From an uncultured Pseudomonadota bacterium (GTDB lineage: Bacteria; Vulcanimicrobiota; Vulcanimicrobiia; Eremiobacterales; Eremiobacteraceae), in assembly GCA_963736005.1 (NCBI GenBank), contig CAVTNB010000003.1, positions 96,001-160,000 on the forward strand: 64,000 bases of DNA. The letters are read 5' to 3'. The notes under the pieces are model-generated. The model was not told the DNA's origin, searched no databases, and saw nothing but the letters and a program-made list of their open reading frames with translations. Both the position numbers and the translations under genes were made by a program. This document shows, in pieces, positions 21,719 to 61,786 of the stretch; position 1 is the stretch's first letter, and every line of letters begins with the position of its first letter.

Positions 21719-23109
21719 CTTTTTCGGAGCAAGGCGTAGAAAAATCCATCGGCTCCCTCGATTCCAGGAATCGTCAAAATGGACTCCCGGATGCGAATGA
21801 ACGTTCCTTCAGGGGCGGTCAACGATAGAGGGACCGCCTGCCAGCTCGAATGCGTTCCCAGAAACTCCTTTATCACCGCTTCATCTTCTCGCGCGTCAGT
21901 CGAACACGTCACGTACAGCAAACGCCCACCCGGTTTGGCATGCGAAGCTGCTTGCGCGAGGATGGCAGCCTGGGTTCGGGCGAGCCGAGCCGGGTCGCTT
22001 GGATCTTTGGCCCAGCGCAAATCTGCGCGCCTGCCAATGGTGCCGATGCCGCTGCATGGTTCATCGACGAGGACCGCGTCAAAACCCAGGGGGTACCCAA
22101 CTTCATACTCTCTTGTTGCGTCTGCTCTTACCACCTCAACATTCTCCACGCCCAGACGCACCATATCTTGCTGCAAGAGCGCAAGCTTGGTTGCGTCGTC
22201 GTCGAGCGCGACAATCCTACCAGCGAGCGGACCTAAAGGTCCGCTGCTACATTTTTGTGCCAGGGCTCCCGTCTTTACGCCGCGGCCAGCGCAGACGTCC
22301 AGCACGCTTTCGCCCGATTGTGGATAGAGGAGCTGCGCGGCGAGTTGGCTCTCTTCACTCTGCATGGTGAGCCTGCCGCTGCCGATCATCCGTTGCAGCA
22401 CGCTCGCGCCGCTGGCGGGAATCGACGCAAGGATAAGGCACTCAGCTATTCCATAGCGGCTCTCGTGCACAACGATGCCAACCCGCCGCAGCGCGTCGCT
22501 CGTTTCACGAACATCCGCGATTTTGACGTTTACCCGGGCTGCACGCCTCGGCGTGCCGTTCATGCCTTGGGTCGCGCGCAATGCATCTACAAATCCAAAG
22601 CGCTCGATAAAGTGCTGGGCGATCCAATTGGGCAATGATGCGTAGTCGGCAAACGCATCAATCGGCCCGTCAGGCGTAGGTAGCGGAGGCGTTTCTCGTC
22701 TCGACGCAACTTTGCGCAGCACAGCGTTCGCGAGCGAAGCTGTCCCCGTATGGCCCAGCCGCCTCGCGAGCTTGACGCTTTCGTCGACCGCACTATGTGC
22801 GGGAATCTTATCTAAGAACAGCAGCTGGTACGCGCCCAAACGCAGCGTCCAGTGCAGCGCAGGCGTCAAGTTGGCCAGCGGCCGCTTCACGACTCGACTC
22901 AAGGACCAATCGAGACTGCGCTGCATCTTGAGCGGCCCGTACACGAGTTGCGTCAGCAAAGCACGGTCTCGCGCAGAGAGTTCGTTTTCGCGCAACGCTG
23001 CATCGAGCGCCGTCTGCCCGCCCCCTGCAAGCAAGACGCGCAGCGCTATCTCGCGTGGACTCCGTCCTTTATCCGTTTCTTTTCGTACGTTTTGCAAACT
23101 CGGCACCAC
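21715..23109 (-). CDS. rsmB: 16S rRNA m5C967 methyltransferase RsmB/Sun
   Basis: NusB-like N-terminus, IPAHSAVDESV, VLDVCAG.G.KT, D.PCSG.G, Y.TCS; contains an in-frame REP. Confidence 0.92.
   Translation of the reverse strand: MVPSLQNVRKETDKGRSPREIALRVLLAGGGQTALDAALRENELSARDRALLTQLVYGPLKMQRSLDWSLSRVVKRPLANLTPALHWTLRLGAYQLLFLDKIPAHSAVDESVKLARRLGHTGTASLANAVLRKVASRRETPPLPTPDGPIDAFADYASLPNWIAQHFIERFGFVDALRATQGMNGTPRRAARVNVKIADVRETSDALRRVGIVVHESRYGIAECLILASIPASGASVLQRMIGSGRLTMQSEESQLAAQLLYPQSGESVLDVCAGRGVKTGALAQKCSSGPLGPLAGRIVALDDDATKLALLQQDMVRLGVENVEVVRADATREYEVGYPLGFDAVLVDEPCSGIGTIGRRADLRWAKDPSDPARLARTQAAILAQAASHAKPGGRLLYVTCSTDAREDEAVIKEFLGTHSSWQAVPLSLTAPEGTFIRIRESILTIPGIEGADGFFYALLRKR
22226..22250 (-). 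repeat. Family A REP inside rsmB, in frame
   Basis: GTAGCAGCGGACCTTTAGGTCCGCT on the coding strand, encoding CSSGPLGPL. Confidence 0.92.
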
Positions 23110-24001
23110 TCATCATAGGTTTGCCTTCAGGAATGACGTTGGTCAAGCAGATGGCGCCCGACGAGGTTGCGATGACTGGACCGAGCTCATTCCAGTCTAC
23201 GACATCACCCGGCGCTGCGTTCTCGGGCCGCGATGACGCGTGCGCCACGACATTGGCTTCCAATACCTTGAGCCGTTTGCCCTCGAACGTCATCCAAGCG
23301 CCTGGTTTGGGGCTTACAGATCGGATTTGGTTCACGACAGCTCGCGCCGGCACGTCGAACCGCAGGCGCAAGTCTTCTTTTGTGATTGGTCGCGTATAGG
23401 TGGCTGCTTCCGCGCGCTGGGGCGTGCGCGGAAGATTGCCTTCGCTCAACCGCTGTGCGGCTTCGCCAAGCAGGTCGCCACCGATACGGGCAAGTTTGTC
23501 GTGGAGCGATCCATAATTGTCGTCCGAGTCAATCTGCACGCTTCTCGAAAGAGCGATGTCACCATCGTCTGTGCCTGCGCCCATCCAAAACACGGTTACA
23601 CCGGTTTGGTCTCGCCCATCCCGCAAGGCTGCCTGAATCGGCGTCGCCCCGCGATATTCTGGTAGAAGGCTTGGGTGAACGTTGAGCGCCCTCAAACCTT
23701 CGATTGCCAAAAGGTTCGTCGGTAAAATCTTTCCGTACGATGCGCAGGCAAGAAGCGTGGGCCGCAATGATGCGATCTGCGCAATAAACTCACCGTCGAG
23801 CCGCCTGGGGAGGAGGAGGACCGCGCTAGCCTCGCGCGTTGCTTTGGCAACCGGCGTTGGGGTCAGGGCGAGTCCGCGGCCCGCAGGTCTGTTCGGCTGC
23901 GAGACAACGGCCACCACCTCTTGCTCTGCGAGCATGCGCTGCAGCGACGGAAGTGAAAAATCGGAGCTCCCAAAAAAAACCGTCCTGAGGCGGCCCGCCA
24001 T
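23069..24001 (-). CDS. fmt: Methionyl-tRNA formyltransferase
   Basis: VFFGS.DFS, V.QP.RPAGRG, NVHPSLLP.YRGATPI. Confidence 0.95.
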   Translation of the reverse strand: MAGRLRTVFFGSSDFSLPSLQRMLAEQEVVAVVSQPNRPAGRGLALTPTPVAKATREASAVLLLPRRLDGEFIAQIASLRPTLLACASYGKILPTNLLAIEGLRALNVHPSLLPEYRGATPIQAALRDGRDQTGVTVFWMGAGTDDGDIALSRSVQIDSDDNYGSLHDKLARIGGDLLGEAAQRLSEGNLPRTPQRAEAATYTRPITKEDLRLRFDVPARAVVNQIRSVSPKPGAWMTFEGKRLKVLEANVVAHASSRPENAAPGDVVDWNELGPVIATSSGAICLTNVIPEGKPMMSGAEFAKRTKRNG

Positions 24002-24002
24002 C

Positions 24003-24536
24003 TCAGATGCTGACTTCTCTGGCGGCCTTTGCTGCTTCTGCGTCGCCGGCTTGCACGGCGACGGCGTCTCGAATGTTCGTTGCCTTGTCGATGATGAGGA
24101 TGCCGTCAAGGTGGTCGACTTCATGTTGGATGCAGCGTGCAAGCATGCCGCTCGCTTCCAAGCGGACCTTCTTGCCATGCCGGTCCAAAGCGGCGATCGC
24201 GCAGCTTGCGGCGCGCGTCACGTCGCCGATCTTTCCGGGAATCGAGAGACAGCCTTCGGGGGCGGTTTCTTCACCCTCGAAATTGGTCAGCATCGGATTC
24301 ACGAAAACGTACTGCTTGTGCTCTTCTTCCTCCCCGACGTCGACGACACAAAGCCGTTTGGAAACGCCTACCTGGGGCGCGGCCAAGCCGATGCCTGGTG
24401 CCGCGTACATCGTCTCGAGCATGTCATCGATGAGTTGCTGGGTGAGAGGCAGCCGCAACTCGAGCGCGGTCATCTTCTTGGCGACCTTGCGCAAGACCGG
24501 ATTTGGCTCGACCAGGATGCGTCGACGATATGCCAT
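24003..24536 (-). CDS. def: Peptide deformylase
   Basis: GIGLAAPQVG, EGCLSIP, QHEVDHLDG. Confidence 0.97.
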   Translation of the reverse strand: MAYRRRILVEPNPVLRKVAKKMTALELRLPLTQQLIDDMLETMYAAPGIGLAAPQVGVSKRLCVVDVGEEEEHKQYVFVNPMLTNFEGEETAPEGCLSIPGKIGDVTRAASCAIAALDRHGKKVRLEASGMLARCIQHEVDHLDGILIIDKATNIRDAVAVQAGDAEAAKAAREVSI

Positions 24537-24541
24537 GCGCG

Positions 24542-25954
<1,413 letters not shown>

Positions 25955-25997
25955 GGGCGCTTGAGGAATTCGCGCCGCGTTCGGGTGATTCCCTGGG

Positions 25998-26870
25998 CTA
26001 CTCGTTCATCGCGCCTGGATGTTCTTCGCTCGCCCAAACCTTTGCTGGGTCTGTTTCAAATGGCCAGACGTGCACCATCCAGTTGTAGATGACGGGGAAG
26101 AATTGTCCGCCGGCCGCTTCACATTGCGTCTGCGTCGTTATCGAACCTGCGAGCCCAAACTGTGGGTTTGGCTGCAGCATTTCTCGCTCCATGCCTTGCG
26201 GGGGCTTACAGAGGTTCACATGCAGGTGCCAGGTGGCCACACCGAGCGGCACCCGGCTGTCCAGTTGATCGAGAGTCGCCGCACGCGGCGCGGTGTACAT
26301 CGCCCCGACCAACTCGTAGCCGCCATCAACCTGCTTGTACATGAGCGAGGTCGGACGGGTGGGATCGAACGAGAATTGGTTCAGGAACGCGTTGCGCATG
26401 TTCGTGAAGTGGTAGATTGCTTGCTTGAACTCCGGATGGAATGGTATATAGCCCGCGGCTTCTGCGGCTTGGTAGTCTTTGTACGGTTCCATTGCTATTT
26501 TCAGAGCAGCGACGATTTGGTTTGCTTTTTCGCGATCTGCGGGGCTGGCCTGGCGCGCTGGCGTCATCTGCATGTGCCCGCCGTGCATGGGCATCGACAT
26601 TGAGTCCATCGATGTGTCGGCGGCTGGGGCGGTCGAGGCGGCGGCTGCGGGCGTTGCCTGCATGCCCGACATGTTCGTCATGGCCACGTCATTGCTAGCG
26701 CCATGGAGCAGCGGACCTTCAGGTCCGCTCTGCATTGCATGCGCCGAGATGCTGCAGTCGTCACCGCAGCCGATTTGGGCTGGAGCCGAATCGTGTGCAA
26801 CGGCGTAGCTTGTGATCGCAGCAGCGAGGGTCAGCGTGACGGCAATGATGGCGGCAGTTGGTAGCTTCAT
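25998..26870 (-). CDS. Hypothetical secreted protein with Met/His-rich linker
   Basis: Signal peptide; MDSMSMPMHGGHM; AEAAGY...DPTRPTSLMY...LVGAMY...WMVHVW; REP remnant at 26705-26729. Confidence 0.75.
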   Translation of the reverse strand: MKLPTAAIIAVTLTLAAAITSYAVAHDSAPAQIGCGDDCSISAHAMQSGPEGPLLHGASNDVAMTNMSGMQATPAAAASTAPAADTSMDSMSMPMHGGHMQMTPARQASPADREKANQIVAALKIAMEPYKDYQAAEAAGYIPFHPEFKQAIYHFTNMRNAFLNQFSFDPTRPTSLMYKQVDGGYELVGAMYTAPRAATLDQLDSRVPLGVATWHLHVNLCKPPQGMEREMLQPNPQFGLAGSITTQTQCEAAGGQFFPVIYNWMVHVWPFETDPAKVWASEEHPGAMNE

Positions 26871-33409: not shown

Positions 33410-36400
33410 CTAGAGGCTGATCTTCACTTGGAAGACCGCTTGCAGCGGCGCGGCGATGGGGTTCTCCTGGTACGGGTACTGTATCTCGGGTTCGAATGTC
33501 GCACCCGGGTTGTAGATGTTGGCGCCGTACTTCACGGGCGCACTATAGCCAGGCAGCAGGTAGGCTCCGCATACGGCCTTAGTCGCAAGTCGCGTCCACG
33601 GCTCTGCAGTACCACCCGAACAGGAGTTGATGATGTTTGCCGCGCCGATCGTAAAAGTCATCCGCGGCGAAGCAATGTACGAGACTTGGGCGTGCATCAA
33701 GAACTGATTGGGAGCTCTGAACGCGCCCAGGCTGTCGAACTGTTTGGTGAACGGGTCTGGAATCGCTATTCCGAGTCCGTTAGCGGGATTCGTTGCACCG
33801 CAAGTCGTTGCATCGAATGGTGAGCCACCTGGTGCCCCGTACGGGTACCGCGGATCACCCGAGATAGGAGATGCAAGAGTTGCCGTGCACGCTGCCGGGT
33901 TAACTCCGTACCCGCTCAGAGGATCTCCGTAGTAGGTCCCCTCGAAGAACTGGAATTGCGGCGATATAGCCCATTTGTCGTGTTTGAAGTTAAGCACGAG
34001 CGAGGCTACGTTTGGCGTTTCGTAGGATGCCGAAGCAGCCTCGATTCCACCCGGAATCGTGCTGAACGGGATGTAGTTGGCACTTGGATCAAGCGTTGGT
34101 TGCGCCGGAGCATTCCAGTATGGATTTGCTACGTCACCAGCGGCGCAGACCGGGGCGCCAACGCCAGCGGTCGTGTAGCACGGGAACGCGTTGGCATTAC
34201 CAAACGAGCCGCAACGACTTGTCGTGCTGCTGTTTGGCGCCGCACCGTTGCATCCGCTGGTAAACGAGTTGTACTGTTGGATGGAGATGTTGATGGAATC
34301 GAGCACGGTACCACCGTTGCCCAGCTTACTGAAACTGATGTACGAGTGGTTGTAGGTGTAGGCAAGCAGCGCCGAGAGGCCGTTCTCGTTGAAGTTACCG
34401 AGGTTGAGTTGGAATTCAACGCCCTCTCCGGTCTGATTGCCAACATTCAGACCTGAAACGAAATTGGTCTTCTGATCTAGGAAGAAGTTTTGGATTTGGT
34501 TATGGGTCTTGCGATAGTAGGGCGTCAGCTTGAAGCTAGCTTCGGTTCCCGCGAAGTGATGCTCCCACGAAAGATCAAAGTTATCCGATGTGGGGGGATA
34601 GATCGCGTGCGTCGTGGTGTTGAAACCGTACGCGTAGAAGTTCTTGCCGTCATATGACGGTAGGTCTTGGTTCAGCAGGTTGTACTGTTCGAAGGCCGTG
34701 TTCGGAGCCTGGTCGTAACGCCCAGCGCTAAACCGGATCACGTTGTCTTGGTTCGCAGTGAACGTGGCTCCCAAGCGCGGCTGGAAGATATAGAACGTTT
34801 CCGAATCGTTCGGCAGGTTTGTCAACGTCGCCGGAACGCTTTGGATGCCGTTCACTAACGGACACGGTGAGTTTGCTGCAGTATCGTCTGCCACGTTATA
34901 GAACGGCTTGTTTCCACCGCCCGGCAGCGCGCAGTACGAGTTGTTCCACGCGGCAAACCAGAACGGTCGCGCCGCCGTGGCTGCGGTATTGGACAGTTGG
35001 TAGGAGAAGCGGTCTTCTCGCAGGCCCGCATCGATGAACAGTTGGCTCGTGGGCTTCCATTGATCTCGGATGCCAACGTTGGCGAAGTTGGGCTTGGCGT
35101 AGTTGCCGCCACCGATTTGTCCGTTTTCAGCCACAAACCATTCGCACGCTGGGCCGCCGCAGTTTGGCGCGGGCAGAGGAGCCCCCGCGAGTGCTTGCCC
35201 TAATGTAAAGGTCTGCGCAAATGCGGAGTGACAGCTAATCGCGGTCCCGGCCGGGGGTGCGCCTGCGGACCCGTTCGAGTAGCAGATGCCCGCTGTTGGA
35301 TTGGCCGAGCTGGTCGCATACGCGAAGTTGCTTAGTCCTTCGAGTTGGTTGATCATCGTGACATCGTTTGCACGATAGTCGATGCCAGCGATATCATTGA
35401 GATCGAAGGTTATGAGGTTCTTGTCATTGATCTGGTCTCCGTACGAAAGGGAACCGCCTTGCTGATTCTGTCGTACGTAGTAGTTGAGTGGGCAGTAGCC
35501 TACGAAATTTGTGTCCAGGGTAATTGGACACGTCTGCGGCCACTCCGAATAATCGGAGAACCCGTAAACTCGTAGGTACGCGGACGAACCGATGTTGTGC
35601 TGGTATTGCGCCTTGATGATCGAGTTGGGATTGGCCGTACCATCACGCTGGTTGAACGGGATGAACGCCGGACCGTTCGCAATGCTGTTTGGGTTGTACG
35701 CGAAATAGACTGGGTGGGTCATCGCTTGGTAGTTTGACGCTAGCGGAGCCCCGACGGCGCCGAGATATTGGATGCCCAAGCCGAAGTTACCAGCGAAGTA
35801 TTGATAGTTTTGGCTACCATTGAGCGCTGCAAAGGCTGGGTCGCTGAATCCCCAGTCGCTCGCAGAGCTGTAGTACTTGTTGTTCAGGTATGACACATCG
35901 TAGAGCAACTGAATATCATCTTTTCCGCTGTCATTACGGTGCGGCAACCCGAAGTGCAGGTTGACCAGGTTCTCCCGGTCATAGACGTTCGACACGTCCA
36001 CGGCGTCGATCGGCGGTGCCAAGGCTAGACCGCCCGGACCGATGCCCGACGCGTAGCAACTGCGGAAATTAAGATTCGTCGCATTTCCAGGGCAAGGGAG
36101 GTTCGCAAATGGCGTGCCAAACGTGCTCTGGTAGCTCGCGCCGTTGTTTTGGTCGATGTAACGGAAATCTTGAGCCGTATTGGTGCTCGCAATGTAGTAC
36201 GAGAAGTTCCGATCCGGAGTGGCTCCGCCAACTTCGATGCTCCCCGAGTTGTACAGCGTTGGCGCGCCGATACCCAGCGACAGGTTGGAGAACCCGGGAT
36301 ACGTTCCGGCCTTGATGACCTGATTGATGTACCCGGCCAATCCCTGGCCTTGAGAGTCGGTGGGAGCTGCGCCGGTGTAGACTTGCAGTTCCTGTTGACC

Positions 36401-37048
36401 GAGTGTTGATGCGGTCGTTGTCGGATAGTTATCGTACGAACGCAGTACAGGTACGCCGTCGAATTCGTAGCCTACCTGATCGTAGTCGCCACCGCGGATA
36501 TGGATGGTTTGAAACCAACCCATCTGACCAGGCGGGACCACGACGCCGGGCGTCGATGCGAGCGCCGAATACGCTTGGTTGAGGCTTCCGCCGCCGCCAA
36601 GATTTGCGACTTTCGCCTGTACCGTCGGGTTGATTGAATACACGTCTGAAGTCGTGCCAGGCTTCACAAGCTCGCCGACCGCACGCGTGGTAACTACACC
36701 AAGCGTTTTGACCGCTTGGGTCGTTATCGTGATCGTTCGTGTGTTATCGGCGAGGACGGTGATACCCGAACGGGTGATGGTCGTATAACCTTCCTTTGCG
36801 GCCGTGACCGTGTACGTGTCAGGGATAAGGGAAACGAACGCAAAGTGTCCAGCTGTGTCCGATTTCGTTGAATTCGCTTCGGATGGGGCTGTTACGCTGA
36901 CGGTTGCGTCAGCGACAGGCGCGCCGGTATCGACAAGGACATAACCGGTAAGCGCTCCAGTTGTGCTCGCTGCCAATGCCCATGTTCCTTGACAGACCAC
37001 AACTAGGGCCGCCAGTATGCCGGCGCGACCTAGGAGTTTTAGTAACAT
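33410..37048 (-). CDS. TonB-dependent receptor-like outer-membrane protein with N-terminal carboxypeptidase-regulatory-like domain
   Basis: Signal peptide, TTG.LTG.V...G.PVADA.V, plug-like IRGG....GYEFDGVP, FQPRLG, alternating C-terminal strand FQVKISL; 1212 aa. Confidence 0.85.
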   Translation of the reverse strand: MLLKLLGRAGILAALVVVCQGTWALAASTTGALTGYVLVDTGAPVADATVSVTAPSEANSTKSDTAGHFAFVSLIPDTYTVTAAKEGYTTITRSGITVLADNTRTITITTQAVKTLGVVTTRAVGELVKPGTTSDVYSINPTVQAKVANLGGGGSLNQAYSALASTPGVVVPPGQMGWFQTIHIRGGDYDQVGYEFDGVPVLRSYDNYPTTTASTLGQQELQVYTGAAPTDSQGQGLAGYINQVIKAGTYPGFSNLSLGIGAPTLYNSGSIEVGGATPDRNFSYYIASTNTAQDFRYIDQNNGASYQSTFGTPFANLPCPGNATNLNFRSCYASGIGPGGLALAPPIDAVDVSNVYDRENLVNLHFGLPHRNDSGKDDIQLLYDVSYLNNKYYSSASDWGFSDPAFAALNGSQNYQYFAGNFGLGIQYLGAVGAPLASNYQAMTHPVYFAYNPNSIANGPAFIPFNQRDGTANPNSIIKAQYQHNIGSSAYLRVYGFSDYSEWPQTCPITLDTNFVGYCPLNYYVRQNQQGGSLSYGDQINDKNLITFDLNDIAGIDYRANDVTMINQLEGLSNFAYATSSANPTAGICYSNGSAGAPPAGTAISCHSAFAQTFTLGQALAGAPLPAPNCGGPACEWFVAENGQIGGGNYAKPNFANVGIRDQWKPTSQLFIDAGLREDRFSYQLSNTAATAARPFWFAAWNNSYCALPGGGNKPFYNVADDTAANSPCPLVNGIQSVPATLTNLPNDSETFYIFQPRLGATFTANQDNVIRFSAGRYDQAPNTAFEQYNLLNQDLPSYDGKNFYAYGFNTTTHAIYPPTSDNFDLSWEHHFAGTEASFKLTPYYRKTHNQIQNFFLDQKTNFVSGLNVGNQTGEGVEFQLNLGNFNENGLSALLAYTYNHSYISFSKLGNGGTVLDSINISIQQYNSFTSGCNGAAPNSSTTSRCGSFGNANAFPCYTTAGVGAPVCAAGDVANPYWNAPAQPTLDPSANYIPFSTIPGGIEAASASYETPNVASLVLNFKHDKWAISPQFQFFEGTYYGDPLSGYGVNPAACTATLASPISGDPRYPYGAPGGSPFDATTCGATNPANGLGIAIPDPFTKQFDSLGAFRAPNQFLMHAQVSYIASPRMTFTIGAANIINSCSGGTAEPWTRLATKAVCGAYLLPGYSAPVKYGANIYNPGATFEPEIQYPYQENPIAAPLQAVFQVKISL

Positions 37049-37204: not shown

Positions 37205-37732
37205 CTAGAGCGCTTCGACCGTGATTTCGCCGTTCGTGTAGATGCAGATCGTGGCCGCGATGGATAGGGCTTCTCGGGCGATTTCTTCAGCTTTGAGCTG
37301 CGTATGCCGTAGGAGAGCCGCGGCGGCAGCTTGGGCATATGGCCCTCCGCTGCCGATGGCCGCGACATTGTCATCGGGCTCCACCACGTCGCCCGTTCCC
37401 GACAGGACGAAGAGATGCTCTGAGTCCCCCACGATGAGGAGCGCTTCGAGCCGCCGCAGGTAGCGATCGGTGCGCCACTCCTTGGCAAGCTCCACTGCGG
37501 CCCGCGTGAGGTTGCCTCGGAACTCGGAAAGCTTGCTTTCGAACTTGTCGAGCAGCGTGATACCGTCGGCTGCCGATCCAGCAAATCCGGCGAGCACCTT
37601 GCCGTCGCCGATGCGGCGAACCTTGCGCGCTTTGTGCTTCATCACCGTCTTGTCAAACGTCACTTGGCCATCGCCGGCGATGGCAAGATGACCGTCGCGC
37701 AGCACTGCGCAAATAGTTGTCGAGTGCATCAT
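37205..37732 (-). CDS. hslV: ATP-dependent protease peptidase subunit HslV
   Basis: [45 protein letters not shown]. Confidence 0.97.
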
Positions 37733-39138
37733 GAGACAAGGTCCTTTGCGACATGGGCGACTTGACAGTCGCCCGCTACAAGGTCGCCCACAATCTTGTC
37801 GACTTCGCAGAGTGCCCGTTGCGCGAGTTGCCGGCGGCGCTCTCGCTTATCACGAACTTTCTTGGGCAGCGGTGCCATATAAGCGAAAGAAACACTTTGT
37901 GGCTGGAAGTCTGCGCTCGTGTCATCGCGCAAGTACGCTAGGAGGCTACCGAGCGCAGTCGTCGGCGGTGGCAAGAACATTTCACCTTGCCCACTGAGGC
38001 GACGGCATGCGTTGTGTGCGGCGAGCATGCCCGTGGCCGCGGCTTCGACATAGCCTTCGCACCCACTGATCTGGCCGGCGAGAAATACATTGTGCGCATT
38101 GCGCAGCGAGAGATCTGCGTTGAGAACACGAGGCGCATCCACAAACGTGTTGCGATGCATCACTCCTAGTCTGAGCCATTCGGCGTTTGCAAGACCTGGG
38201 AGTTTCCCGAAGGTGGACTTTTGGGCGGGCCATGTGAGGCGTGTTTGAAAGCCGACCATATTGTAGGCCGTGCCGGCTGCGTTTTCGCGGCGCAGTTGAA
38301 CGACGGCGTAGGGGCGTGAAGGGGCGATTTGCCAATCGCCCCCTACGGGTTCGGCGAGTTGCGGAGCGTGCAGACCAACGGGCTTTAAGGGGCCGAAGCG
38401 GAGCGTGTCGGCTCCGCGGCGCGCCATTTCTTCTACCGGTAAGCAACCCTCGAAATACGGCATGGTCTCTTGTGTGGGTTCGTCTACGACCCCATGTGGT
38501 TGTGCCTTCGGACTCGTCACGAGATCCTGGACTAATTGAAGATATTGCTGCTCGTCCAACGGGATGTTCAGATAGTCCTCGCCGCCCTTACCATAGCGCG
38601 ATGCAGCGAAGACGCAAGAGCGATCGATCGAGTCTGCGCTTACAATGGGAGACGCGGCATCGAAATAGTGCAGATGGGGTTTGCCACACAATTGCGCGAG
38701 CGCCGCGGCCAGCGCGGGCGAGGCGAGCGGCCCGCACGCAACGATAACAGGATCGGAAAACTCGAGTGCTTGCACTTCCTCCCGTCGTACTTCGATCAGC
38801 GGATGACCGAGCAAGCGCTCTTCAACATAACGAGAGAATCTCTCGCGATCGACCGCCAATGCTCCGCCTGCGGGAACGGCTGTCGCGCGCGCCGCCGTCA
38901 CGATGAGCGAACCAAGCCGAGCCATCTCTTCCTTGAGCAACCCAACCGCGTTTTCCAGCGAGGTGGAACGCAAGCTATTGCTGCACACGAGTTCGGCGAA
39001 ATTGGCGGTTCGGTGCGCACCCGTGCTGACGTGCGGGCGCATTTCGTATAAGGTCACCGGGGCGCCGAGTTGCGCCGCCTGCCATGCAGCTTCGCAGCCG
39101 GCAAGCCCGCCCCCGATGATTCGCAGCCGATCCATCAT
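37729..39138 (-). CDS. trmFO: Folate/FAD-dependent tRNA m5U54 methyltransferase TrmFO
   Basis: [58 protein letters not shown]. Confidence 0.95.
37755..37779 (-). repeat. Family C REP inside the trmFO 3' end
   Basis: GTAGCGGGCGACTGTCAAGTCGCCC, identical to 30283-30307; encodes VAGDCQVA. Confidence 0.9.
38322..38346 (-). repeat. Family C REP variant inside trmFO, in frame
   Basis: GTAGGGGGCGATTGGCAAATCGCCC, encoding VGGDWQIA. Confidence 0.8.
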
Positions 39139-41352
39139 GCGCTGCGTTTTTGGCTTTGCTCTTCTTCCCTTTCCGGGGAGATGATGATTCCGCTCGCCTG
39201 CCCGTTGGGTGAGGTCACGGCCTCGACAAAACCATGCTCGTGGCTCCCGTCGACCGGGCAAACGATCTTACCCTCCGCCCGCCCATGCTTGCGGACGAGG
39301 AAAGAACCGCAGATGGCGCAGGCCGAACCGACGATTGGCGTATCCCAGGCAACAAACGTACACTCCGGATACTTCTCGCAGCCATAAAACACGCGGCCAC
39401 GCTTGCTTCGGCGCTCCAAGATTCGGCCGCCGTCGCGCGGGCAGATAACGCCGGAATCTTTGATAATTGGTCGCGTGGTCTTGCACTCCGGGTATCCCGA
39501 GCAGGCAAGGAACTTGCCAAAACGACCCGTCTTGATCTTCATTGGGCGCCCGCAGGTTGGACACACCTCGTCGGTCTCGTCTTCTACGAGCTCGACTTTT
39601 GGGAACAACTCTTCGGCAAGCTTGAGATCTGCCGCGAAGGGTCCGTAAAACGTGCGCAGCAAGGACACCCAATCGTCGTGAGCCTCCTCGACACGATCCA
39701 AACGCCGCTCCATCTCAGACGTAAAGTTGGCGTCGACAATCTCCTTGAAATGCTTCTCCAACAAGTCAGTGACGACAAAGCCAATCTCTTGCGGCACAAA
39801 GCGGCGTTCCATCAAGCGCACGTAGCCGCGTCCTTGTATGGTCTCGACGATGGTCGCGTAGGTGCTGGGACGTCCGATCCCTTTTTCTTCAAGCGCCTTG
39901 ACCAAGCTGGCTTCGGTGAAGCGTGGTGGCGGTTGCGTCTCGTGCTGTTCTGGGGTCACCTTGCGGGGGTCGAGGGCTTGACCTTCCTCCACGGCCGGTA
40001 GTTGCTTGCGTCGCTCCTCTTCTTCCGACGTATCCTCATCGCGAGTTTCTTCATAGATTGCGGTGTAGCCGGCAAACTTGAGCACGCTGCCAGTAGCGCG
40101 GAAGGCGCAATCGCCGGCAGTGATGTCGATGGTGGTCTGGTCGTACACTGCCGGTGACATCTGGCTAGCTACGAATCGTTCCCAGATGAGCTTATAAACC
40201 TTGAGCTGCGCTGCGTCCAGATACTGCGCCATGCTTTCAGGGGTTCGATTGACGTCGGTGGGTCGAATCGCTTCGTGAGCATCCTGCGCTGTCTCTGACA
40301 CTTTGTACTGGCGACCGCCGTGGAATTCCGCGCCGAAACGACCAATGATGTAGTCGCGCGCCATGCTCTGCGCCGTTTCCGAAAGCCGCGTTGAGTCCGT
40401 GCGCATATAGGTGATGAGACCGACCGTTCCGTCACCCGTGTCGACCCCTTCGTAGAGTCCTTGCGCCAGTTGCATCGTCTTACGCACGCGCATCTTCAGT
40501 CTACGTGACGCCTCTTGCTGCAGCGTGCTCGTGGTAAACGGACTGCGTGGAAAATCACGCCGCTCGGAGCGCTTGATGCCGGTAATCGAAAAGTGGGTTG
40601 TCTTCAAACGCTCGGCGAGCGCGTGCGCATCGTCGCTGGTTGTGACGTACATGCTCTTTTGGCCGACGGCGGCAGCCACGTCGGCGGGAACATTTGATTT
40701 CTTGCCTGCGACCGACACGAGATCCGCCACGAATGTATGTAAAGCATCGTGGTGCCCGTGCGGCCACAACGGTCGCGGAGACGGTCCAGTACTCGTGTTT
40801 GCGGAAGGCGGCGATTTCGCGTTCGCGATCGACAATAAGTTTCACCGCGACCGACTGCACGCGTCCAGCTGAGAGCCCGCCTCGAACCTTGCGCCACAGC
40901 AGCGGTGAAATCTGATAGCCGACAAGCCGATCCAGGATTCGACGCGCCTGCTGCGCATTGACTCGATCGGCGTTGATTGGGCTTGGGTTTTTCAGTGCTT
41001 CTTGGGCGGCGTGTTTGGTTATTTCATGGAGCTCAATGCGCTTGGGTTCCTGGAGTTTGAGCAGCTCCGCGAGATGCCAGGCGATGGCTTCCCCTTCGCG
41101 GTCGGGATCGGTGGCAAGATAGACATGAGTCGCCTTTTTGGCTGCGCTGCGCAACTCTTTGATGACGTCGCCCTTGCCTTTGATGGTCACATAGGAGGGC
41201 GTGAAGTCATGCTCGATATCGACGCCGAGGCGGCTCTTGGGAAGATCGCGGACGTGTCCGACCGACGCGAGTACTTGATATCGGGAGCCGAGGAATTTTT
41301 TGAGGGTACGGGCTTTCGCCGGTGACTCCACTATGATGAGGGACTTTGACAA
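39135..41352 (-). CDS. topA: DNA topoisomerase I, apparent +1 frameshift near 40768
   Basis: [28 protein letters not shown] in one frame; [36 protein letters not shown] and zinc ribbons in the next. Confidence 0.93.
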
Positions 41353-41432
41353 ACTGGCCTTTCCGCATGAACCGCGTCGATTGAGCTCGACCGCTGCTCG
41401 GGACACCGTCCCCGATGGTTCAAACGTCCCCT

Positions 41433-41497: not shown

Positions 41498-41808
41498 ATG
41501 TAGCAGCGGACCTTTAGGTCCGCTCTGGCGCAACTTGTATGTAGCAGCGGACCTTTAGGTCCGCTCTGGCGCAACTTGTATGTAGCAGCGGATCTTTAGG
41601 TCCGCTCTGGCGCAACTTGTATGTAGCAGCGGACCTTTAGGTCCGCTCTGGCTGCGACTTGTATGTAGCAGCGGATCTTTAGGTCCGCTCTGGCGCAACT
41701 TGTATGTAGCAGCGGATCTTTAGGTCCGCTCTGGCGCAACTTGTATGTAGCAGCGGATCTTTAGGTCTGCTCTGGCGCAACTTGTATGTAGCAGCGGATA
41801 TTTAGGTC
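41498..41808 (+). repeat. Tandem array of family A REP, 41-bp unit, seven full copies plus one partial
   Basis: ATGTAGCAGCGGA(C/T)CTTTAGGTCCGCTCTGGCGCAACTTGT repeated with near-identical linkers. Confidence 0.95.
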
Positions 41809-41812
41809 TCCC

Positions 41813-42274
41813 TTAGCACCAAGGGTCCGGCGCGCCCGAAAATTGGTACTCTTGCGCTTCAGTCACCAAACCAGCTCGAACTGGATTCAATCTGATGTAG
41901 CGCGCAAAGTCGTGAGCATCTTCATAATCCCTCTTGATCCGCTCGTGGAAACCTCGCATCCATGAAACATCCGCGTGAGGTTTTGCATAGTGCCTGATTC
42001 CAGACTTAATCACTGCAACGAGCATGTCCAACCGAGTGCTGCCTAGGCGAAGCTTGAGCAGCAGGTGGATGTGATCAGGCATTATGCAATATGCATACAG
42101 GTAGTAGCGACCAGCCTGCCGATATCGCATGATCACGCCTTTCGCGATTTCGGCGATTTTCGGATCAGCGAAGGCCGGCGCGCGGTTTTTGGTACACATC
42201 GTTATGAAGTATGTGCGCTCCGCGCAATAGTCAAAGCCTTTCAGTCTTGGTGGCCGCATGGTAAAGCGATTCAT
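41813..42274 (-). mobile_element. REP-associated tyrosine transposase (RAYT/TnpA-REP, IS200-like Y1 HUH)
   Basis: RLKGFDY, TYFIT.CT..R, YCIMPDHIHLL (HUH), W.RGFHER, YIRLNPVRAGL (catalytic Tyr), flanked by inward-facing REPs. Confidence 0.9.
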
Positions 42275-42313: not shown

Positions 42314-42378
42314 AGCGGACCTGAAGGTCCGCTGCTACATTTTTGCGATTGTGAGCGGACCTAAAGGTCCGCTACTAC
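42314..42378 (-). repeat. Two family A REPs upstream of the RAYT
   Basis: AGCGGACCTGAAGGTCCGCTGCTAC and AGCGGACCTAAAGGTCCGCTACTAC. Confidence 0.92.
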
Positions 42379-56456: not shown

Positions 56457-56460
56457 GACT

Positions 56461-57741
56461 TTAGCCGAAGCCGCGGGTGAAATTGCCGACCTTCACCGTT
56501 GGAAATTCGCTCTTCAACCAACGTAACCACGCGCGCATGCCGAGCGGCGCGGTTGAAGGCCGGCCCACCGACGCGAAGTACAAAGCCGGGTCGACGTTGA
56601 GCGTTCGCGTCTGGACCATGTTGATCGGAATCTCGATCAGGAGTTGGGCGAATGCGCTCATCTCGACTGGATCGTCTGTCACGCCCGGATGGGTGAGGAG
56701 ATTCAATGAAATGTTGATGCCTCGGGACGCGGCCACCCTTAAACTCTCGACGACCTGCTCGAAGCTATACCCCTTGGGCCGGTAGTAGGCTGCATACGTC
56801 TGCGGCCGAACCGAATTCACGCTGACCCGAATTGATTGGAGACCTGCGTCGATCAGCCGAGCAAGTGCTTTTGGCATGCTCGCGTTCGTGTTGCAGTGAA
56901 TGACGCCGGCCGATGTCACCGAGCGAATGCGCCCTATGGCTTGTTCGATCCAAGGAGCGGCTAGCAGCGGCTCGCCCTCGCAACCTTGGCCGAACGAAAC
57001 CAGCCCGTCCGGCACGCTACGAAGATGCGCGGTCGCAACCTCGCAAATTTCCTCGACGGTTGGGCGAGTGCGCACGCGTTCCTGGGCGCTGCGGATCTGC
57101 GCGTCGGGCTCCTGTTCGGAGATGCATCCAAGACAGCGTGCGTTGCACGCGGGTGACACTGGAAGCGCCGCTTCACCCATCCGCAGGAAGACATTTTGTG
57201 CGGTAAAGCAGCCGTATTCGGTCGCGCAGCGAGCAAGTTGCGCAACGAGCGCGTTGTTTGGGAACTCTAGCGAGCGCAACGCGATGCCTTCCCGCACAGC
57301 CTCTGCAGCATGGGCCTGGGGCGACCAGCTTTCGAGCTCATCGGTGCGCACAGCTGCAACACGAAACCCGCCATCACTCCAAGCGACTGCCGTATAACCA
57401 TATAGGGGAAGTCGCGGTGCGTTCTTGCGCTCGACATACGCGGGGAGGAGCACGCGCGTGTAGCCGAGGGGAAGGGCTGCCGCAACCGCCGTTATCTCTT
57501 CATCAGCGTGGTGGCTTATGACCGCCGCCGCAGCATCGCTGTACCCGAAGACCTGCCTCCCCGGCAGCGTCAGCAGCAGCGCTCCTTCGGGGAGGGGGAT
57601 GAAATCATCTGGGTCAGCCGGACCGATGAAACCGTTGTCTGCAGCGGCAGCGACCTGCGGCAGATCGAGCACAGAACCGTCGGCTCGAGCAAACACTGCC
57701 TTGAGTGTTGCCGAGGTAACCCGCGATGTCTTCACCGCCAT
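56461..57741 (-). CDS. Radical SAM protein
   Basis: CNARCLGC (CxxxCxxC), SFGQGCEGEPL, NTNA. Confidence 0.88.
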   Translation of the reverse strand: MAVKTSRVTSATLKAVFARADGSVLDLPQVAAAADNGFIGPADPDDFIPLPEGALLLTLPGRQVFGYSDAAAAVISHHADEEITAVAAALPLGYTRVLLPAYVERKNAPRLPLYGYTAVAWSDGGFRVAAVRTDELESWSPQAHAAEAVREGIALRSLEFPNNALVAQLARCATEYGCFTAQNVFLRMGEAALPVSPACNARCLGCISEQEPDAQIRSAQERVRTRPTVEEICEVATAHLRSVPDGLVSFGQGCEGEPLLAAPWIEQAIGRIRSVTSAGVIHCNTNASMPKALARLIDAGLQSIRVSVNSVRPQTYAAYYRPKGYSFEQVVESLRVAASRGINISLNLLTHPGVTDDPVEMSAFAQLLIEIPINMVQTRTLNVDPALYFASVGRPSTAPLGMRAWLRWLKSEFPTVKVGNFTRGFG

Positions 57742-57745
57742 CGCT

Positions 57746-58633
57746 CTAGGGGATAGCCTGCAACAAGGCAGTGGGCACGTCCACCGTGGTGCGATAAACG
57801 AGGTGGGCATCGCCCGTCAAGTACGCCGGATGACCGGCTCCCGCCCATTCCACAAGAACCTTGCCTCCGCGGGAATGAACGACGACGGGAGACTCCGCGC
57901 GACCGGAATGCATCGCGGCTGCGGCGGCAGCGCATGCGCCGGTCCCGCACGCCCACGTCTCACCAACCCCGCGCTCGCGCACGCGCATGTGGATGCCGTC
58001 GGCCATGACCGTAGCAAATTCGACATTGGTTGCATCGACGTTGGCGCTGACGTTGGCAGCTGCGGCCAAGGCTTCAAGGTCGATTGCTGCCGGATCACCG
58101 GCGCCAAAGACGACCGTATGCGGATTTCCCATGGACACAGAATACGCTTCGTACCGCTCGCCCGAGAATGAGAACGTCCGCCCTTGCGCGACCGCGCGCG
58201 AATGAATTCGCGCGTCTACATTTTTGTCTTCGCTCGAATGTGTTTTAGGGATTTCTGGCACACCCATCGCGGCTCGAACGCCAGGTTGCCCTTGCCATGT
58301 TGCAATGTTCGTGCGCATCACACCCGACGCGGTTTCAATGTCGAACTGAGTCTTCGCGGGATTCTCCTCGTGAAGGTACCTCGTCACGCAGCGAATGCCG
58401 TTGCCGCACATCTCCGCTTCGCTCCCATCAGCGTTGAAGGTTCTCATCGAGGCAGCACAGCCCGGCGCGGTTGGCTCGCCGATGACAAGCAAGCCATCGG
58501 CGCCCAGAGAAAACCGGCGGTGGCAAAGCTCCCTGGCGATCGCCGCGTAGGGCCTCTCCGCTACGCCGCGAGCATCGAGGAGAACGAAGTCGTTCCCCGT
58601 CCCATGGCACTTGGTGACGGCGATGAGCGGCAT
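57746..58633 (-). CDS. dapF: Diaminopimelate epimerase
   Basis: K.HGTGNDF, GADG, NADGSEAEMCGNG.RC, SMGNPH, ERGVGET.ACGTGA. Confidence 0.95.
   Translation of the reverse strand: MPLIAVTKCHGTGNDFVLLDARGVAERPYAAIARELCHRRFSLGADGLLVIGEPTAPGCAASMRTFNADGSEAEMCGNGIRCVTRYLHEENPAKTQFDIETASGVMRTNIATWQGQPGVRAAMGVPEIPKTHSSEDKNVDARIHSRAVAQGRTFSFSGERYEAYSVSMGNPHTVVFGAGDPAAIDLEALAAAANVSANVDATNVEFATVMADGIHMRVRERGVGETWACGTGACAAAAAAMHSGRAESPVVVHSRGGKVLVEWAGAGHPAYLTGDAHLVYRTTVDVPTALLQAIP
58195..58219 (-). repeat. Family B REP inside dapF, in frame
   Basis: GTAGACGCGCGAATTCATTCGCGCG, encoding VDARIHSR. Confidence 0.88.
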
Positions 58634-58647
58634 GAGCCGACGTGAGG

Positions 58648-58965
58648 CTACGGTGCTACGGAAGTTCGAACGACGCCGTCCGTTGCAGCGACTTCGTGAC
58701 CATCAGCGGCAACTGCCGCGTTGGGGCGCACAGCCCCGATCTCCGCTCCCGAGAACTGCACCGGCGTTTGCGGCGAAACGGTCGAGACCGCATGCTTATA
58801 GACAAGGTGCGGTTTGTTATCGTATTCGAGGATTATCGTGAAATTATCGAAACCGCGGACGTGTCCGCGCAGCTGGAAACCATTGCGCAAATAGATCGTT
58901 ACCGGCGCGTTTTCGCGCTTGATCGCTTGCAAATATGCGTCTTGCAAGGGCAGATTATTTTTCAC
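58648..58965 (-). CDS. hfq: RNA chaperone Hfq
   Basis: LQD.YL, V.IYL.NGFQLRG, FDNF, LVYKHAVSTV.P; downstream of miaA. Confidence 0.95.
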   Translation of the reverse strand: MKNNLPLQDAYLQAIKRENAPVTIYLRNGFQLRGHVRGFDNFTIILEYDNKPHLVYKHAVSTVSPQTPVQFSGAEIGAVRPNAAVAADGHEVAATDGVVRTSVAP

Positions 58966-59041
58966 GCCATCTTCTCCATTATCTCTCTTGCGGTGGCATG
59001 GAATGCAACAACCACCGCTGCTTTTGGCGGTCGCCACTCTT

Positions 59042-59971
59042 TCACGCCGGCACCAATCTTTCCCTTGCCAGCGCAACGATGCTGGCCGTCGCGCGTTCCT
59101 CGTCCAATGCATCGATAATGGGTACGTCGCGCATGTGGCGGAACCAGGTTTCCTGACGCTTCGAGTACTGCTCGGTGCGCGCAATGGTCCGACGTATCGC
59201 TTCCTGTTCCGTCGCACATCCATCCCACAGTGCGAGGGCTTCCGCGTAGCCTAAACCGGACAAAGCCGGCGCACCAGGTGCACCAGCTCGCACGGTCCGC
59301 GCTTCTTGCATAAGGCCGGCACGAAACATTTCATGCACGCGCAGTGCGATGCGCCGCCGCAGCTCTTCGCGTGGCAGGCTCATGCGAACAACCACGAAGC
59401 GGATATCGCTGCAAGCGTCGCGCTCCAAACGATCCGGCAAGACCTCACTCATGGCACGCTCCAGCCCTCTCAAGATTCTGTACGAATCGCTCGGTCGAGC
59501 GCCGGCTGCGATGGAAGGCGCTTTCACACGCAGCCACTCCCATAAGAACTTGGGAGGGTGGACGCTGCCTTCAAGCCGTAGCCGCGCGCGCAATGCCTCG
59601 TCTGGCGGTGGGCGATCCAGAGGCATTCTTCCGGTGAGTGCCTCGACATAGAATCCCGTGCCCCCAACGATGATGGCGAGCTTCCCGCGCTTGCAAATGT
59701 CGCGCGTGATGCGGGCGGCGTCCGCGGCGAAGCGTGCGGCGCTGTAGCGTTGCGATGGATCCAAGAAGCCGTAGAGATGGTGCGGCACGCGTTCGAGGCT
59801 ATCGTGCGTCGGCATGCCGGTGCCGATGCTCATGCCGCGATACACTTGCCGGGAGTCGGCGTTTACGATTTCGCCGCCGAACAACTCCGCCACTCGTAAT
59901 GCGATCGCGGACTTCCCTGATGCCGTAGAGCCACAGATGACAAGTGCGCGCGAGTCTTCGCGCCCGCTCAC
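59042..59971 (-). CDS. miaA: tRNA dimethylallyltransferase
   Basis: GSTASGKS, NADSRQVYRGM.IGT, PHHL, VGGTGFY, KRQ.TWF. Confidence 0.95.
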   Translation of the reverse strand: MSGREDSRALVICGSTASGKSAIALRVAELFGGEIVNADSRQVYRGMSIGTGMPTHDSLERVPHHLYGFLDPSQRYSAARFAADAARITRDICKRGKLAIIVGGTGFYVEALTGRMPLDRPPPDEALRARLRLEGSVHPPKFLWEWLRVKAPSIAAGARPSDSYRILRGLERAMSEVLPDRLERDACSDIRFVVVRMSLPREELRRRIALRVHEMFRAGLMQEARTVRAGAPGAPALSGLGYAEALALWDGCATEQEAIRRTIARTEQYSKRQETWFRHMRDVPIIDALDEERATASIVALARERLVPA

Positions 59972-61786
59972 GTCCGCTTGAAAGCTCGGGCGAGCGCTTC
60001 CGCATTGAAGCGCAGCGTCGTCGGCCTCCCATGCGGGCAGGTCTGCGGATCACGGCAGACCCGCAAGCGTTCGTACAGCGTCAACTGCTCCGCAACGCTG
60101 AGCGGTTCGTGCGCTCTGACGACCGAGTGACAAGCAACCGTTGCAAGGAGCTTGTGTCGACGCCGGCTTGCAGCGCTGTTGCCGCCGGAGCGGACCTGAA
60201 GGTCCGCTGCTACATTGTCCGCTGCTACCATTTTCCGCTGCTGCATTTTCCGCTGCTACATTTTCCGCTGCTGCATTTTCCGCTGCTACATTATCTGCTC
60301 CATTTGCCAGATCGTCGAGCACGCCAGCGAGATCGAAGCGGCGTTCACCGTAACCCGATGGCAATGCGCTCAAGCGGTACGCATCATCGCCAAACGGCTC
60401 GACCACGACACCCATGGCGATGAGATCGTCTTGGGAAGTTTCAAGCGTTGCGATCTGATCCGGCGTGAGCGAAACGATGCGCGGCAGGAGCAACGGCGCG
60501 GATGCTTCCATCACGCCGGCCCGTGCTTCAAGCGCCTCGAAGGCGATGCGTTCGTGAGCAGCGTGCTGGTCGATGATGAGCAGCTCGTGCCGGTCGCTGA
60601 TCACGATAAAGGTTTGATCGATTTGCCCAAGAGCCCGAGGCCCTCCGTCGAGGTTTTTCGATGGGTCCTCAGCTGAGCCGTCGAGGAGGGAAATTGCAGC
60701 TGCCTCCCCTGCGCCAGCATTACCGGGCGAAAATGGACTCGACGCGGACAGCGGACCGGTGGGTGCGGGCGCTTGGGAAGCGGACCCCGCTCGCAGCGCC
60801 TCATCGACCGCGCTGCGCACGACGTCGAAAACCGCGGCCGCACTCACGAAGCGCACTTCGATTTTGGTCGGATGAACATTGACATCAACGTCGCCGGGCG
60901 CAAGCGAGAGCATAAGGACCCCGTAGGGATAGCGTCCAGTCATCAATTTGTTCGCATAGGCTGCCGACCACGCGGTGCTCAAGGCAGGACTGCGGACCAA
61001 TCGGCCGTTGACAAAAATAACTTGGCCGTGCCGATTCGGACGATCCACTCCGATGCGCGACGTGAAGCCACCAATACCTATCATCATGTTTGGGGATGTG
61101 CTGACGTTCGTGAGCGATCCGCGACTGCCGCGACCGAAGACCATCTCCAAGCGGTCAACAGGAGCGCCAACTGCGGGCAACGACCAGACGTCCCGCCCTT
61201 CATGCCGCAGAGAAAAAGCAACCTTGGGCCAGCCAAGCGCAATGCGCGAGAGAAAGGCGCTGATGCGGGCGAACTCGCCCTTGTCGCTTCCAAGAAAATC
61301 CCGGCGAACGGGTGTGGCCGCAAAGAGATCGCGCACGACAACTTTGGTGCCAGGCGAAGCCGCCACGGGCTGAATGCTGCCGGCAACGCCGTTGCGAACG
61401 GCGACCCGAGCGCCAAAATTCTGCCCCGAGGCCCGTGAGATGATTTCAAGGTTGCCAGCAGCTGCGGCAATGCTCGCGAGCCCCTCACCGCGAAACCCAA
61501 GGGTTCGAATCGAAAACAAATCTGTTGCGCTCGACAGCTTGCTCGTGCCATGCCGATGCAAGGCAAGCGGCAGGTCTTCGGAAATGATGCCCCGCCCGTC
61601 ATCTTGCACGATAATTTCCGTGCGACCACCACCGCGCAGCTCGACGGCGACCCAAGATGCGCCAGCGTCAAGGCTGTTCTCGATGAGTTCTTTGACCACC
61701 GACACGGGCCGCTCGATGACTTCTCCGGCGGCAATCTGGGAAATGGTGGCTTCGTCGAGTAAACGGATGCGCTCCAACGTTTGCAC
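59968..61786 (-). CDS. mutL: DNA mismatch repair protein MutL, REP-derived insert and apparent +1 frameshift near 60229
   Basis: IAAGEVIERP.SVVKELIENSLDAGA, GFRGEGL, DVNVHPTK.EVRF, DQHAAHER; ACH and CPHGRP motifs in the shifted frame. Confidence 0.92.
60189..60292 (-). repeat. Family A REP plus five 15-bp half-REP tandem repeats inside mutL
   Basis: (AATG[T/C]AGCAGCGGA[A/C]) repeats followed by GTAGCAGCGGACCTTCAGGTCCGCT. Confidence 0.9.

Follow-up and report, generated by a model that had tools for sequence, protein, structure and literature searches.

Filled, empty and swapped alleles of REP hairpins in coding loops of conserved enzymes in an Eremiobacteraceae genome

Six 25-nt repetitive extragenic palindromic (REP) hairpins lie inside genes, in the reading frame of their hosts, in a 64,000-nt stretch of genome G000, an uncultured Eremiobacteraceae bacterium (the window; positions are window positions unless a contig is named). 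Among the hosts are the conserved enzymes RsmB, TrmFO, DapF and MutL. The same loops are edited repeatedly: in near-identical strains a given site is found filled, empty or occupied by a REP of another family, and a non-coding mobile hairpin thus continually remodels loops of essential enzymes. This re-editing was missed by the original prediction, an earlier note on the window that had drawn attention to the in-frame hairpins themselves. The elements are probably ordinary GTAG-headed REPs spread by three REP-associated tyrosine transposases (RAYTs), with the coding copies filtered for frame, the loops re-edited, and the peptides near-neutral passengers.

Coding hairpins and the states of their sites

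The original prediction had assigned the six hairpins and their peptides to the genes listed below. All are present in the host frame as described, and NCBIfam profiles confirm the four named enzymes.

21715..23109, minus strand: rsmB, 16S rRNA m5C967 methyltransferase, single copy (TIGR00563 above cut-off)
22226..22250, minus strand: REP of family A in rsmB, sense; peptide CSSGPLGPL
25998..26870, minus strand: gene for a secreted hypothetical protein, 290 amino acids (aa)
26705..26729, plus strand: REP of family A with a GGAG head, antisense to the secreted protein gene; peptide SGPEGPLL
37729..39138, minus strand: trmFO, tRNA m5U54 methyltransferase, single copy (NCBIfam above cut-off)
37755..37779, minus strand: REP of family C in the TrmFO C-terminal tail, sense; peptide VAGDCQVA, seven codons before the stop, overwriting the tail (+4 aa)
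38322..38346, minus strand: REP of family C in an internal TrmFO loop, sense; peptide VGGDWQIA, the loop having 19 residues versus 8 in most homologs
57746..58633, minus strand: dapF, diaminopimelate epimerase, single copy (NCBIfam above cut-off)
58195..58219, minus strand: REP of family B in dapF, sense; peptide VDARIHSR, part of a 36-nt unit at 58194-58229
59968..61786, minus strand: mutL, single copy (NCBIfam above cut-off); the called reading frame stops at 60050 owing to a frameshift
60189..60213, minus strand: REP of family A, TTCA loop variant, in the linker of the MutL C-terminal domain, sense; peptide VAADLQVR in the intact frame
60219..60292, minus strand: five tandem 15-nt truncated REP 5' halves in mutL, read as NVAAE-like units

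All six sites fold as hairpins, with 8-9 bp stems (5-13 bp being the span for GTAG-type REPs), 4-nt loops and z-scores of -2.6 to -5.5. Family A accounts for the copies in rsmB, mutL and the secreted protein gene, family B for that in dapF and family C for both in trmFO, so that all three families take part, as had been proposed. Other parts of the proposal require qualification. The GTAG head that it gave to the whole set is found at five sites, but the copy at 26705 begins with GGAG. The frames do avoid the TAG of the head, but this is required of any copy inside an open gene and therefore carries no extra evidence. Placement within conserved enzymes holds except that the trmFO copy at 37755 sits in a tail outside the conserved domain.

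The rsmB peptide falls in the turn linking the helix after the S-adenosylmethionine-binding motif to the next strand. The secreted protein has no family in NCBIfam or Pfam profile searches; its ortholog in the sister species G002 is shorter by exactly 30 nt, in frame, and the REP is kept in two cluster members. In mutL the frame is shifted by a surplus base in the array unit at 60219-60232. The frame correction called for earlier is borne out by four near-identical MutL proteins from other assemblies, all intact and with VAADLQVR in frame; by comparison with these sequences the frameshift is probably an assembly error. NVAAE-like units number five in G000 mutL and one, one, one and three in the intact MutL homologs.

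The extent of turnover emerges from comparison with G002, which has about 88-93% DNA identity to G000 over the window and for which cover was fetched for 39 of the 70 in-gene REPs of G000, or 36 loops. Twenty-seven of the 36 are of unequal length in the two genomes, against a background of 11 indel clusters in 42.4 kb of REP-free coding sequence (CDS), about 4% per site-sized window. These differences preserve frame in most cases: 23 of the 27 are multiples of three (p = 4e-8), the exceptions being an N-terminal case, DprA, the ribH-mtnA junction and mutL. With the TrmFO tail left out, its difference extending beyond the stop, and likewise the scrambled TrmFO loop of G002, the count is 21 of 25. 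The 36 loops include a second Lhr hit (C1:1024322; four mismatches, no length change) that is probably not a REP.

In G002, four of the sites lack a REP (a Gfo oxidoreductase, an amine oxidase, TruB and the secreted protein). At HemW, RsmB, NuoG and an AddA/UvrD-like helicase the G000 family is exchanged for family C in G002; further swaps affect Mfd (A versus B) and the TrmFO tail, and in peptidase S9 family C is kept, but in another frame. RsmB of G002 has half of an A copy together with a REP of family C, the latter read in a different frame. Shared copies have also decayed to broken stems (ThiL, Lhr, LeuRS, biotin carboxylase). The same pattern, A or B in G000 and C in G002, is seen at intergenic sites of the window. 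A direction mostly toward C, if the swaps are polarized correctly, fits G002, whose only RAYT found is of type C. At the ribH-mtnA junction (G000:C3:83522-84901), ribH and an IF-2B-family (mtnA-like) gene form one 459-aa open reading frame (ORF) read through a family B REP (C3:84426), whereas in G002 they are separate genes with a stop plus a second REP between them (+61 nt). Either a REP fused the two genes, or the joint ORF results from an indel in the assembly.

Similar states are encountered in closer strains and in other lineages. Within 90% identity clusters, HemW P0132 (94.5% identical) and NuoG P0134 (96.7%) have the C peptide VGGDWKIAP where G000 has an A peptide. The 36-nt dapF unit is doubled in one close strain, the 12-aa unit appearing twice in DapF P0124, and is reduced to a remnant in G002; the 36-nt repeat is found independently in run X1. 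The TrmFO loop reads VGGDWQIAP in G000, VAGDCQVAH in P0002, VGGDCQIAP in G001 and CSGATSVAP in G003, and the TrmFO tail of relatives ends in other REPs, for example VGGDWKIAP, with the stop provided by an A REP behind it, or VAADLQVR. MutL of G001 and the TrmFO tail of G003 contain their lineage's own A variant, with a stem matching the REPs beside its RAYT. In ValRS a family B copy in G000 and G002 and a family C copy in G001 have unrelated flanks. CSGATSVAP derives from another family and frame, and its hairpin is perfect and single-copy in G003. No other copy of its family was found in the genus, yet this REP (G003:C98:2951-2975) resembles REPs beside a RAYT of G018, from another genus; it is possibly a relic, surviving in coding DNA, of a family since lost. 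Loop peptides readable from other GTAG hairpins also occur at the same positions in distant TrmFO and HemW homologs (P0009, P0014, P0012, P0141; 66-76% identity). Those peptides, such as GSGRPCVDRP (P0009), CGGREFHSR (P0012) and CSSASLLAR (P0141), are unverified at the DNA level and were not counted.

Orthologs free of REPs, on hand for 15 sites, indicate how the elements are accommodated. Nine copies are net insertions: the TrmFO loop (+11 aa), RsmB (+8), DapF (+12 to +14), MutL (about +12), Lhr (+14), biotin carboxylase (+6), NuoG (+10), an amine oxidase (+32) and the secreted protein (+10). Six are near length-neutral overwrites of linkers (TrmFO tail, HemW, ValRS, SMC, DnaE2, LeuRS), and the GluRS site is ambiguous between the two. 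Insertions, as expected from ortholog alignment, are thus found at nine of the 15 sites but not at the remaining six. The proposal of RAYT-driven addition of roughly 9-aa loops likewise stands in part: cognate RAYTs are present and the peptides are missing from REP-free orthologs, but overwrites and arrays of up to +32 aa do not conform to it. The TrmFO loop, with 19 residues in G000, has 8 in 83 of 121 proteins (2 of the 121 lacking a pattern match) and shows an 11-residue gap against PDB 3g5q; its length ranges over 3-20 residues among the closest ~36 hits and is nearly always 8 beyond them. The RsmB insert extends a segment of 12 residues in the clade, and two orthologs 84-85% identical are empty (in the loop counts, 6 of 120 RsmB proteins had no match and 3 were mis-parsed; 4 of 122 HemW proteins had no match). 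DapF segment length varies among solved homologs too.

The expectation that the peptides form surface loops agrees with AlphaFold models, in which TrmFO residues 251-270 have predicted confidence (pLDDT) values of 47-62 (model mean 82) and RsmB residues 271-280 a value of 61 (model mean 95). Both modelled loops are thus predicted as low-confidence coil in otherwise well-predicted folds. ValRS, SMC, DapF, RsmB and TrmFO are single-copy genes with the insert between conserved parts; because conserved sequence flanks it on both sides and length differences fall in multiples of three, the REP codons are probably translated. The 80 loci from a metagenome scan by TrmFO alignment, mostly distant, were all free of in-gene REPs of these families.

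RAYTs and the genomic distribution of REPs

Each REP family of G000 has one RAYT gene. The three Y1_Tnp genes are flanked on both sides by their own REP family in inverted orientation (3/3 loci) and encode the motifs DH[IL]H (HUH) and YI..NP (YxxxNP). The four RAYT proteins given to NF047646 all scored 99-105 bits (cut-off 80), and far below the IS200 cut-off. One of the three loci lies in the window:

41500..41771, plus strand: seven tandem family A REPs downstream of RAYT-A
41813..42274, minus strand: RAYT-A (NF047646, 104.8 bits versus cut-off 80; HUH and YxxxNP motifs)
42314..42378, minus strand: two family A REPs upstream of RAYT-A, inverted relative to the downstream array

RAYT-A has the same neighbours in G000, G001 and G003, and the gene is missing from that locus in G002. 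The RAYT-B locus of G002 has ~2 kb of other DNA instead of RAYT-B. This DNA lies between B REPs (G002:C5, ~1,186,990-1,189,040) and includes a 441-aa ORF that by inspection resembles a flavin adenine dinucleotide-dependent monooxygenase, apparently cargo in place of the RAYT within the REPtron. The stop-to-stop frames of RAYT-C (L001:1423-1956) and RAYT-B (L002:1309-1899) extend through upstream REPs, whose translation hinges on the start codon used. In the RAYT tree, 7 of 27 RAYT-like loci were left out, the motif search having given no ORF.

The genome (2.84 Mb, 6 contigs, 84% complete), which by its named homologs probably belongs to Candidatus Eremiobacterota, contains 431 perfect GTAG-N-stem8-loop4-stem8 elements, versus 16 for the next most frequent tetramer with equal geometry. 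A relaxed set with at most four mismatches to a family consensus comprises 677 REPs (A 185, B 254, C 238). Against gene calls from a self-trained hexamer model (2691 genes, 87% coding), 493 of the 677 are intergenic, 111 lie across a stop, 3 across a start and 70 inside called ORFs. In 83 of the 111 stop-overlapping cases, genome-wide, the TAG stop is supplied by the REP's own GTAG head in sense orientation. Thirty-seven strict copies lie wholly within called CDSs versus 0-2 in each of 20 synonymous-codon shuffles, a control that had been proposed and that upholds the original claim; together with the tetramer counts it argues that in-CDS REPs are not chance occurrences. Nonetheless, REPs are strongly depleted from genes. 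Deep inside a gene, defined as at least 30 codons from both gene ends with coding signal on both sides, there are 30 of the 677 relaxed and 21 of the 431 strict copies (about 5%), compared with about 292 of 431 expected under random placement, a depletion of about 14-fold.

Copies inside genes are not better preserved than others. The strict pattern is matched by 36 of 70 intragenic versus 394 of 604 other copies (p = 0.026), and stems are broken in 22 of 70 versus 173 of 604 (p = 0.68), an equality that neither supports nor excludes selection on the hairpin. Of the 30 deep-internal copies, 23 are sense and 7 antisense (p = 0.005). REPs between co-oriented genes show the same bias (212 sense versus 74), which is therefore general and not specific to coding copies; a codon-level cause was accordingly rejected. 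GC skew is near zero, and a leading/lagging-strand pattern is not readable for REPs. In-gene family A copies in sense frame 0 all have the TTCA loop, which avoids a stop (5/5; 36 of 185 A copies overall). Nested junctions, where a truncated 5' half is immediately followed by a new REP, involve 34 of the 677 REPs (5%) versus 0.5% of random positions, as in RsmB of G002 and a LuxC-like gene of G000. Inverted pairs were seen among coding sites in NuoG and Mfd, the others being single or head-to-tail.

Family abundance varies among relatives, exact-pattern counts for A/B/C being 113/137/150 in G000, 19/49/239 in G002, 28/0/11 in G001 and 16/2/51 in G003. In 28 genomes of other genera the exact pattern of the G000 families is absent save for two A-like matches in G036. 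Several other-genus genomes have their own RAYT and REP families, and in other genera of the family the REPs are GTAG- or GGAG-headed and different but share the geometry of an 8-bp stem and 4-nt loop. Three genomes marked unpublished (G008, G011, G013) appear only among REP-free rows, and no conclusion rests on them.

Pfam was run on 34 of the host proteins encoded elsewhere than in the window; coding score and position had guided the choice, made without knowledge of function. The hosts it names include ValRS, LeuRS, GluRS, DnaE2, ImuB, SMC, Lhr, Mfd, an AddA/UvrD-like helicase, RecO, DprA, TruB, NuoG, HemW, SucA and pyruvate dehydrogenase (PDH) E2.

Several observations concern the assembly and the remainder of the window. 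In G000, leuS (C2:50290-53100) changes frame near codon 790, topA (window 39135-41406) is seemingly split in two ORFs, and rpoB and rpoC are called as partial ORFs, all of them signs of indel errors. A 1212-aa ORF on the minus strand (window 33410-37048) has no NCBIfam family at E 1e-5, and ~2.9 kb at window 8499-11396 has no counterpart in the syntenic G002 region.

A model for loop re-editing and its alternatives

The probable course of events is as follows. The few percent of REPs that sit in coding DNA would have survived there by keeping frame and by falling in a tail, a linker or a loop at the surface. Once present, a REP would make its loop a hotspot, as RAYTs are expected to cut single-stranded DNA near hairpins and join new copies there; an existing REP would thus serve as substrate for arrivals in or beside it, which fits the nested junctions. 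By analogy with characterized enzymes, these RAYTs presumably cleave and join REPs, and this chemistry could generate the swaps. Replication slippage may expand or delete units, as in the 15-nt and 36-nt arrays, so that a loop could be repeatedly inserted into, overwritten by a family that still has its RAYT, duplicated or emptied, while selection would let through only those results that keep frame. As passengers, the peptides are most likely near neutral and tolerated as a by-product of RAYT activity.

A number of points weigh against this model. Only 39 of the 70 in-gene REPs are covered in G002, and many N-terminal cases, called by the hexamer gene model, may be leaders. The base at -1 of GTAG is T in 78-92% of copies, but that at -2 is mostly A, with C in only 3-25%; there is no clean signature upstream of GTAG of a target between C and T, although some nested junctions read CCT/GTAG. 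Mfd carries family B in G002, where the B RAYT is missing, and G002, being 83% complete, could hold a further RAYT that is unassembled. Certain coding copies (DnaE2, SMC) are the same in G000 and G002. The HemW C alleles of P0132 and G002 share flanks and may reflect one event spread by recombination. The apparent over-representation of repair genes is not predicted by neutrality. Finally, indel errors occur in both assemblies (leuS and mutL in G000, nuoG in G002), and some single differences are therefore artefacts; the scrambled TrmFO loop of G002 is one, since P0003 is intact.

Such errors are the basis for a broader suspicion, that abundant repeats were mis-joined into genes. This is largely refuted and very improbable as a general account: the same inserts recur in separately assembled P0121, P0123, P0126, P0128, P0129, P0131, P0136 and P0137, length differences are mostly multiples of three, and X1 contigs enter the dapF and mutL REPs from unique flanks. 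In mutL these contigs end at 60214 and resume at 60264; X2-X4 give only small pieces. A more serious contender, though not a likely one, explains recurrence at the same site by independent de novo hits on a few tolerant positions plus replication slippage at hairpins, with no re-targeting by RAYTs. The DapF, GltX, PDH E2 and NuoG sites are indeed naturally variable linkers in REP-free homologs, the tandem 15- and 36-nt expansions fit slippage, and the unrelated flanks of the two ValRS families suggest separate arrivals. However, nested junctions keep part of the older REP beside the new one, the A/B-to-C pattern extends to intergenic sites, and the TrmFO loop is variable almost only among its closest homologs, being otherwise nearly always 8 residues.

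The original prediction saw in the inserts a source of protein innovation or of mRNA hairpins, and neither function is borne out: no benefit was seen, peptides are swapped, lost or decaying, and the strict pattern is rarer in genes. In its stronger form, the first idea makes RAYT/REP turnover a host-retained, site-directed loop diversifier, acting preferentially on loops of repair and RNA-modifying enzymes as standing cassettes, with functionally different peptide or empty alleles; this we regard as improbable. The more general proposition, that the activity is kept partly for rewriting core-enzyme loops and tuning activity, interactions or mutation rate, is equally doubtful. In its favour, replication, repair and segregation genes make up 9 of 39 REP hosts versus 2 of 40 length-weighted random genes (p = 0.025), and a broad nucleic-acid class 15 of 39 versus 7 of 40 (p = 0.047), in small samples with categories set by the author after the Pfam hits had been seen. 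The same bias, in the same genes, with speculation on mutators, appears in the consulted part of PMC3733652, and the DnaE2 and SMC peptides are identical in G000 and G002. Against it, unrelated peptides in differing frames replace one another, empty alleles persist in close relatives and copies in genes are depleted, and repair proteins, when long, weakly expressed and built of several domains, have more tolerant linkers to offer. Slightly less probable still is selection on the hairpin itself, whether as a DNA site or as a structure in mRNA that acts on pausing, decay or co-translational folding. The sense excess of deep-internal copies, the replacement of one hairpin by another and the perfect, solitary hairpin in the G003 TrmFO loop speak for it, but the excess recurs between co-oriented genes, shared copies have broken stems, in-gene stems are no better kept than others and four sites are empty in G002.

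Because frame acts as a filter and flanks are conserved, REP movement can be traced at coding sites with more precision than in intergenic DNA, and such sites are natural substrates for the question of how RAYTs insert and replace REPs in vivo. On the practical side, REP loops and arrays cause false calls of pseudogenes and fusions, and they mark insertion-tolerant positions in TrmFO, RsmB, DapF, MutL, ValRS, SMC and others.

Relation to known REP systems

Coding insertion of palindromes had been taken to be known mainly from Rickettsia, a view contradicted by PMC3733652, which in the part consulted already tabulates GTAG REPs within genes, Opitutus terrae by itself taking up 70 rows. That source offers a loop/linker explanation and describes a bias to repair genes, of which the present counts are a second, controlled hint since 2013. 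It gives one same-site case, different REPs at about one site in two Xanthomonas recB genes. The resemblance to the present elements is close: short GTAG hairpins, single or dimer, contribute peptides of 7-10 aa to known proteins; a genome has several families, each with a RAYT of its own; the stop is often the TAG of the head; and the bias is to repair and RNA enzymes, with the same host genes (dnaE2, truB, tRNA synthetases, 2-oxoacid dehydrogenase E2). Whereas the lists seen there are mainly from single genomes, here filled, empty, swapped and expanded states are followed over 36 loops and in near-identical strains, in Eremiobacterota. A search that lay outside subscription journals turned up no paper describing strains that differ in the REP family of a coding loop, nor any pairing Eremiobacter with REPs.

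Replacement at a fixed site has its own precedents. According to the portion consulted of bioRxiv 10.1101/2024.10.14.618302, REPINs at a conserved position in Pseudomonas chlororaphis change to match the predominant RAYT, and an excerpt of PMC3686654 proposes partial replacement after an 'orthoswitch'. As in those systems, which repeat occupies a conserved position shifts with time, in keeping with the resident RAYT; unlike them, where the sources describe extragenic REP doublets, these are single REPs inside coding loops, and both peptide and frame are altered. Known intragenic insertion and known same-site replacement are thus found jointly, on core-enzyme loops and at short timescales. Rickettsia palindromic elements are a further parallel, as selfish palindromes that are read in frame as part of conserved enzymes, but in the passages seen of PMC3184786 and PMC3733652 they measure about 105-146 nt, as opposed to 25 nt with a GTAG head and a cognate RAYT in the genome.

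The enzymes resemble the TnpA-REP proteins of REPtrons (Escherichia coli, group 2; Stenotrophomonas and Marinomonas, group 3) in being ~150-aa HUH/Tyr enzymes with inverted flanking REP arrays. In the available account of PMC8266576, TnpA-REP cuts single-stranded DNA 5' or 3' of the REP between C and T and joins strands, and a model outlined in PMC3333891 has an excised unit integrating by recombination with a target that already carries a REP. A cut site of that kind is not evident in the present elements, the base two before GTAG being mostly A. Intragenic REPs are noted again in PMC6006769, as far as consulted, along with REPs inside RAYT genes of subclass 2.4, a feature not shared here, where no REP interrupts the RAYT core. 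Short perfect REP stems and an enzyme length of about 151 aa fit subclass 2.5, although its motifs (DH[LF]H, WQ, YI[VI]ANP) match those of RAYT-A (DHIH, WM, YIRLNP) only in part, in a comparison by motif alone.

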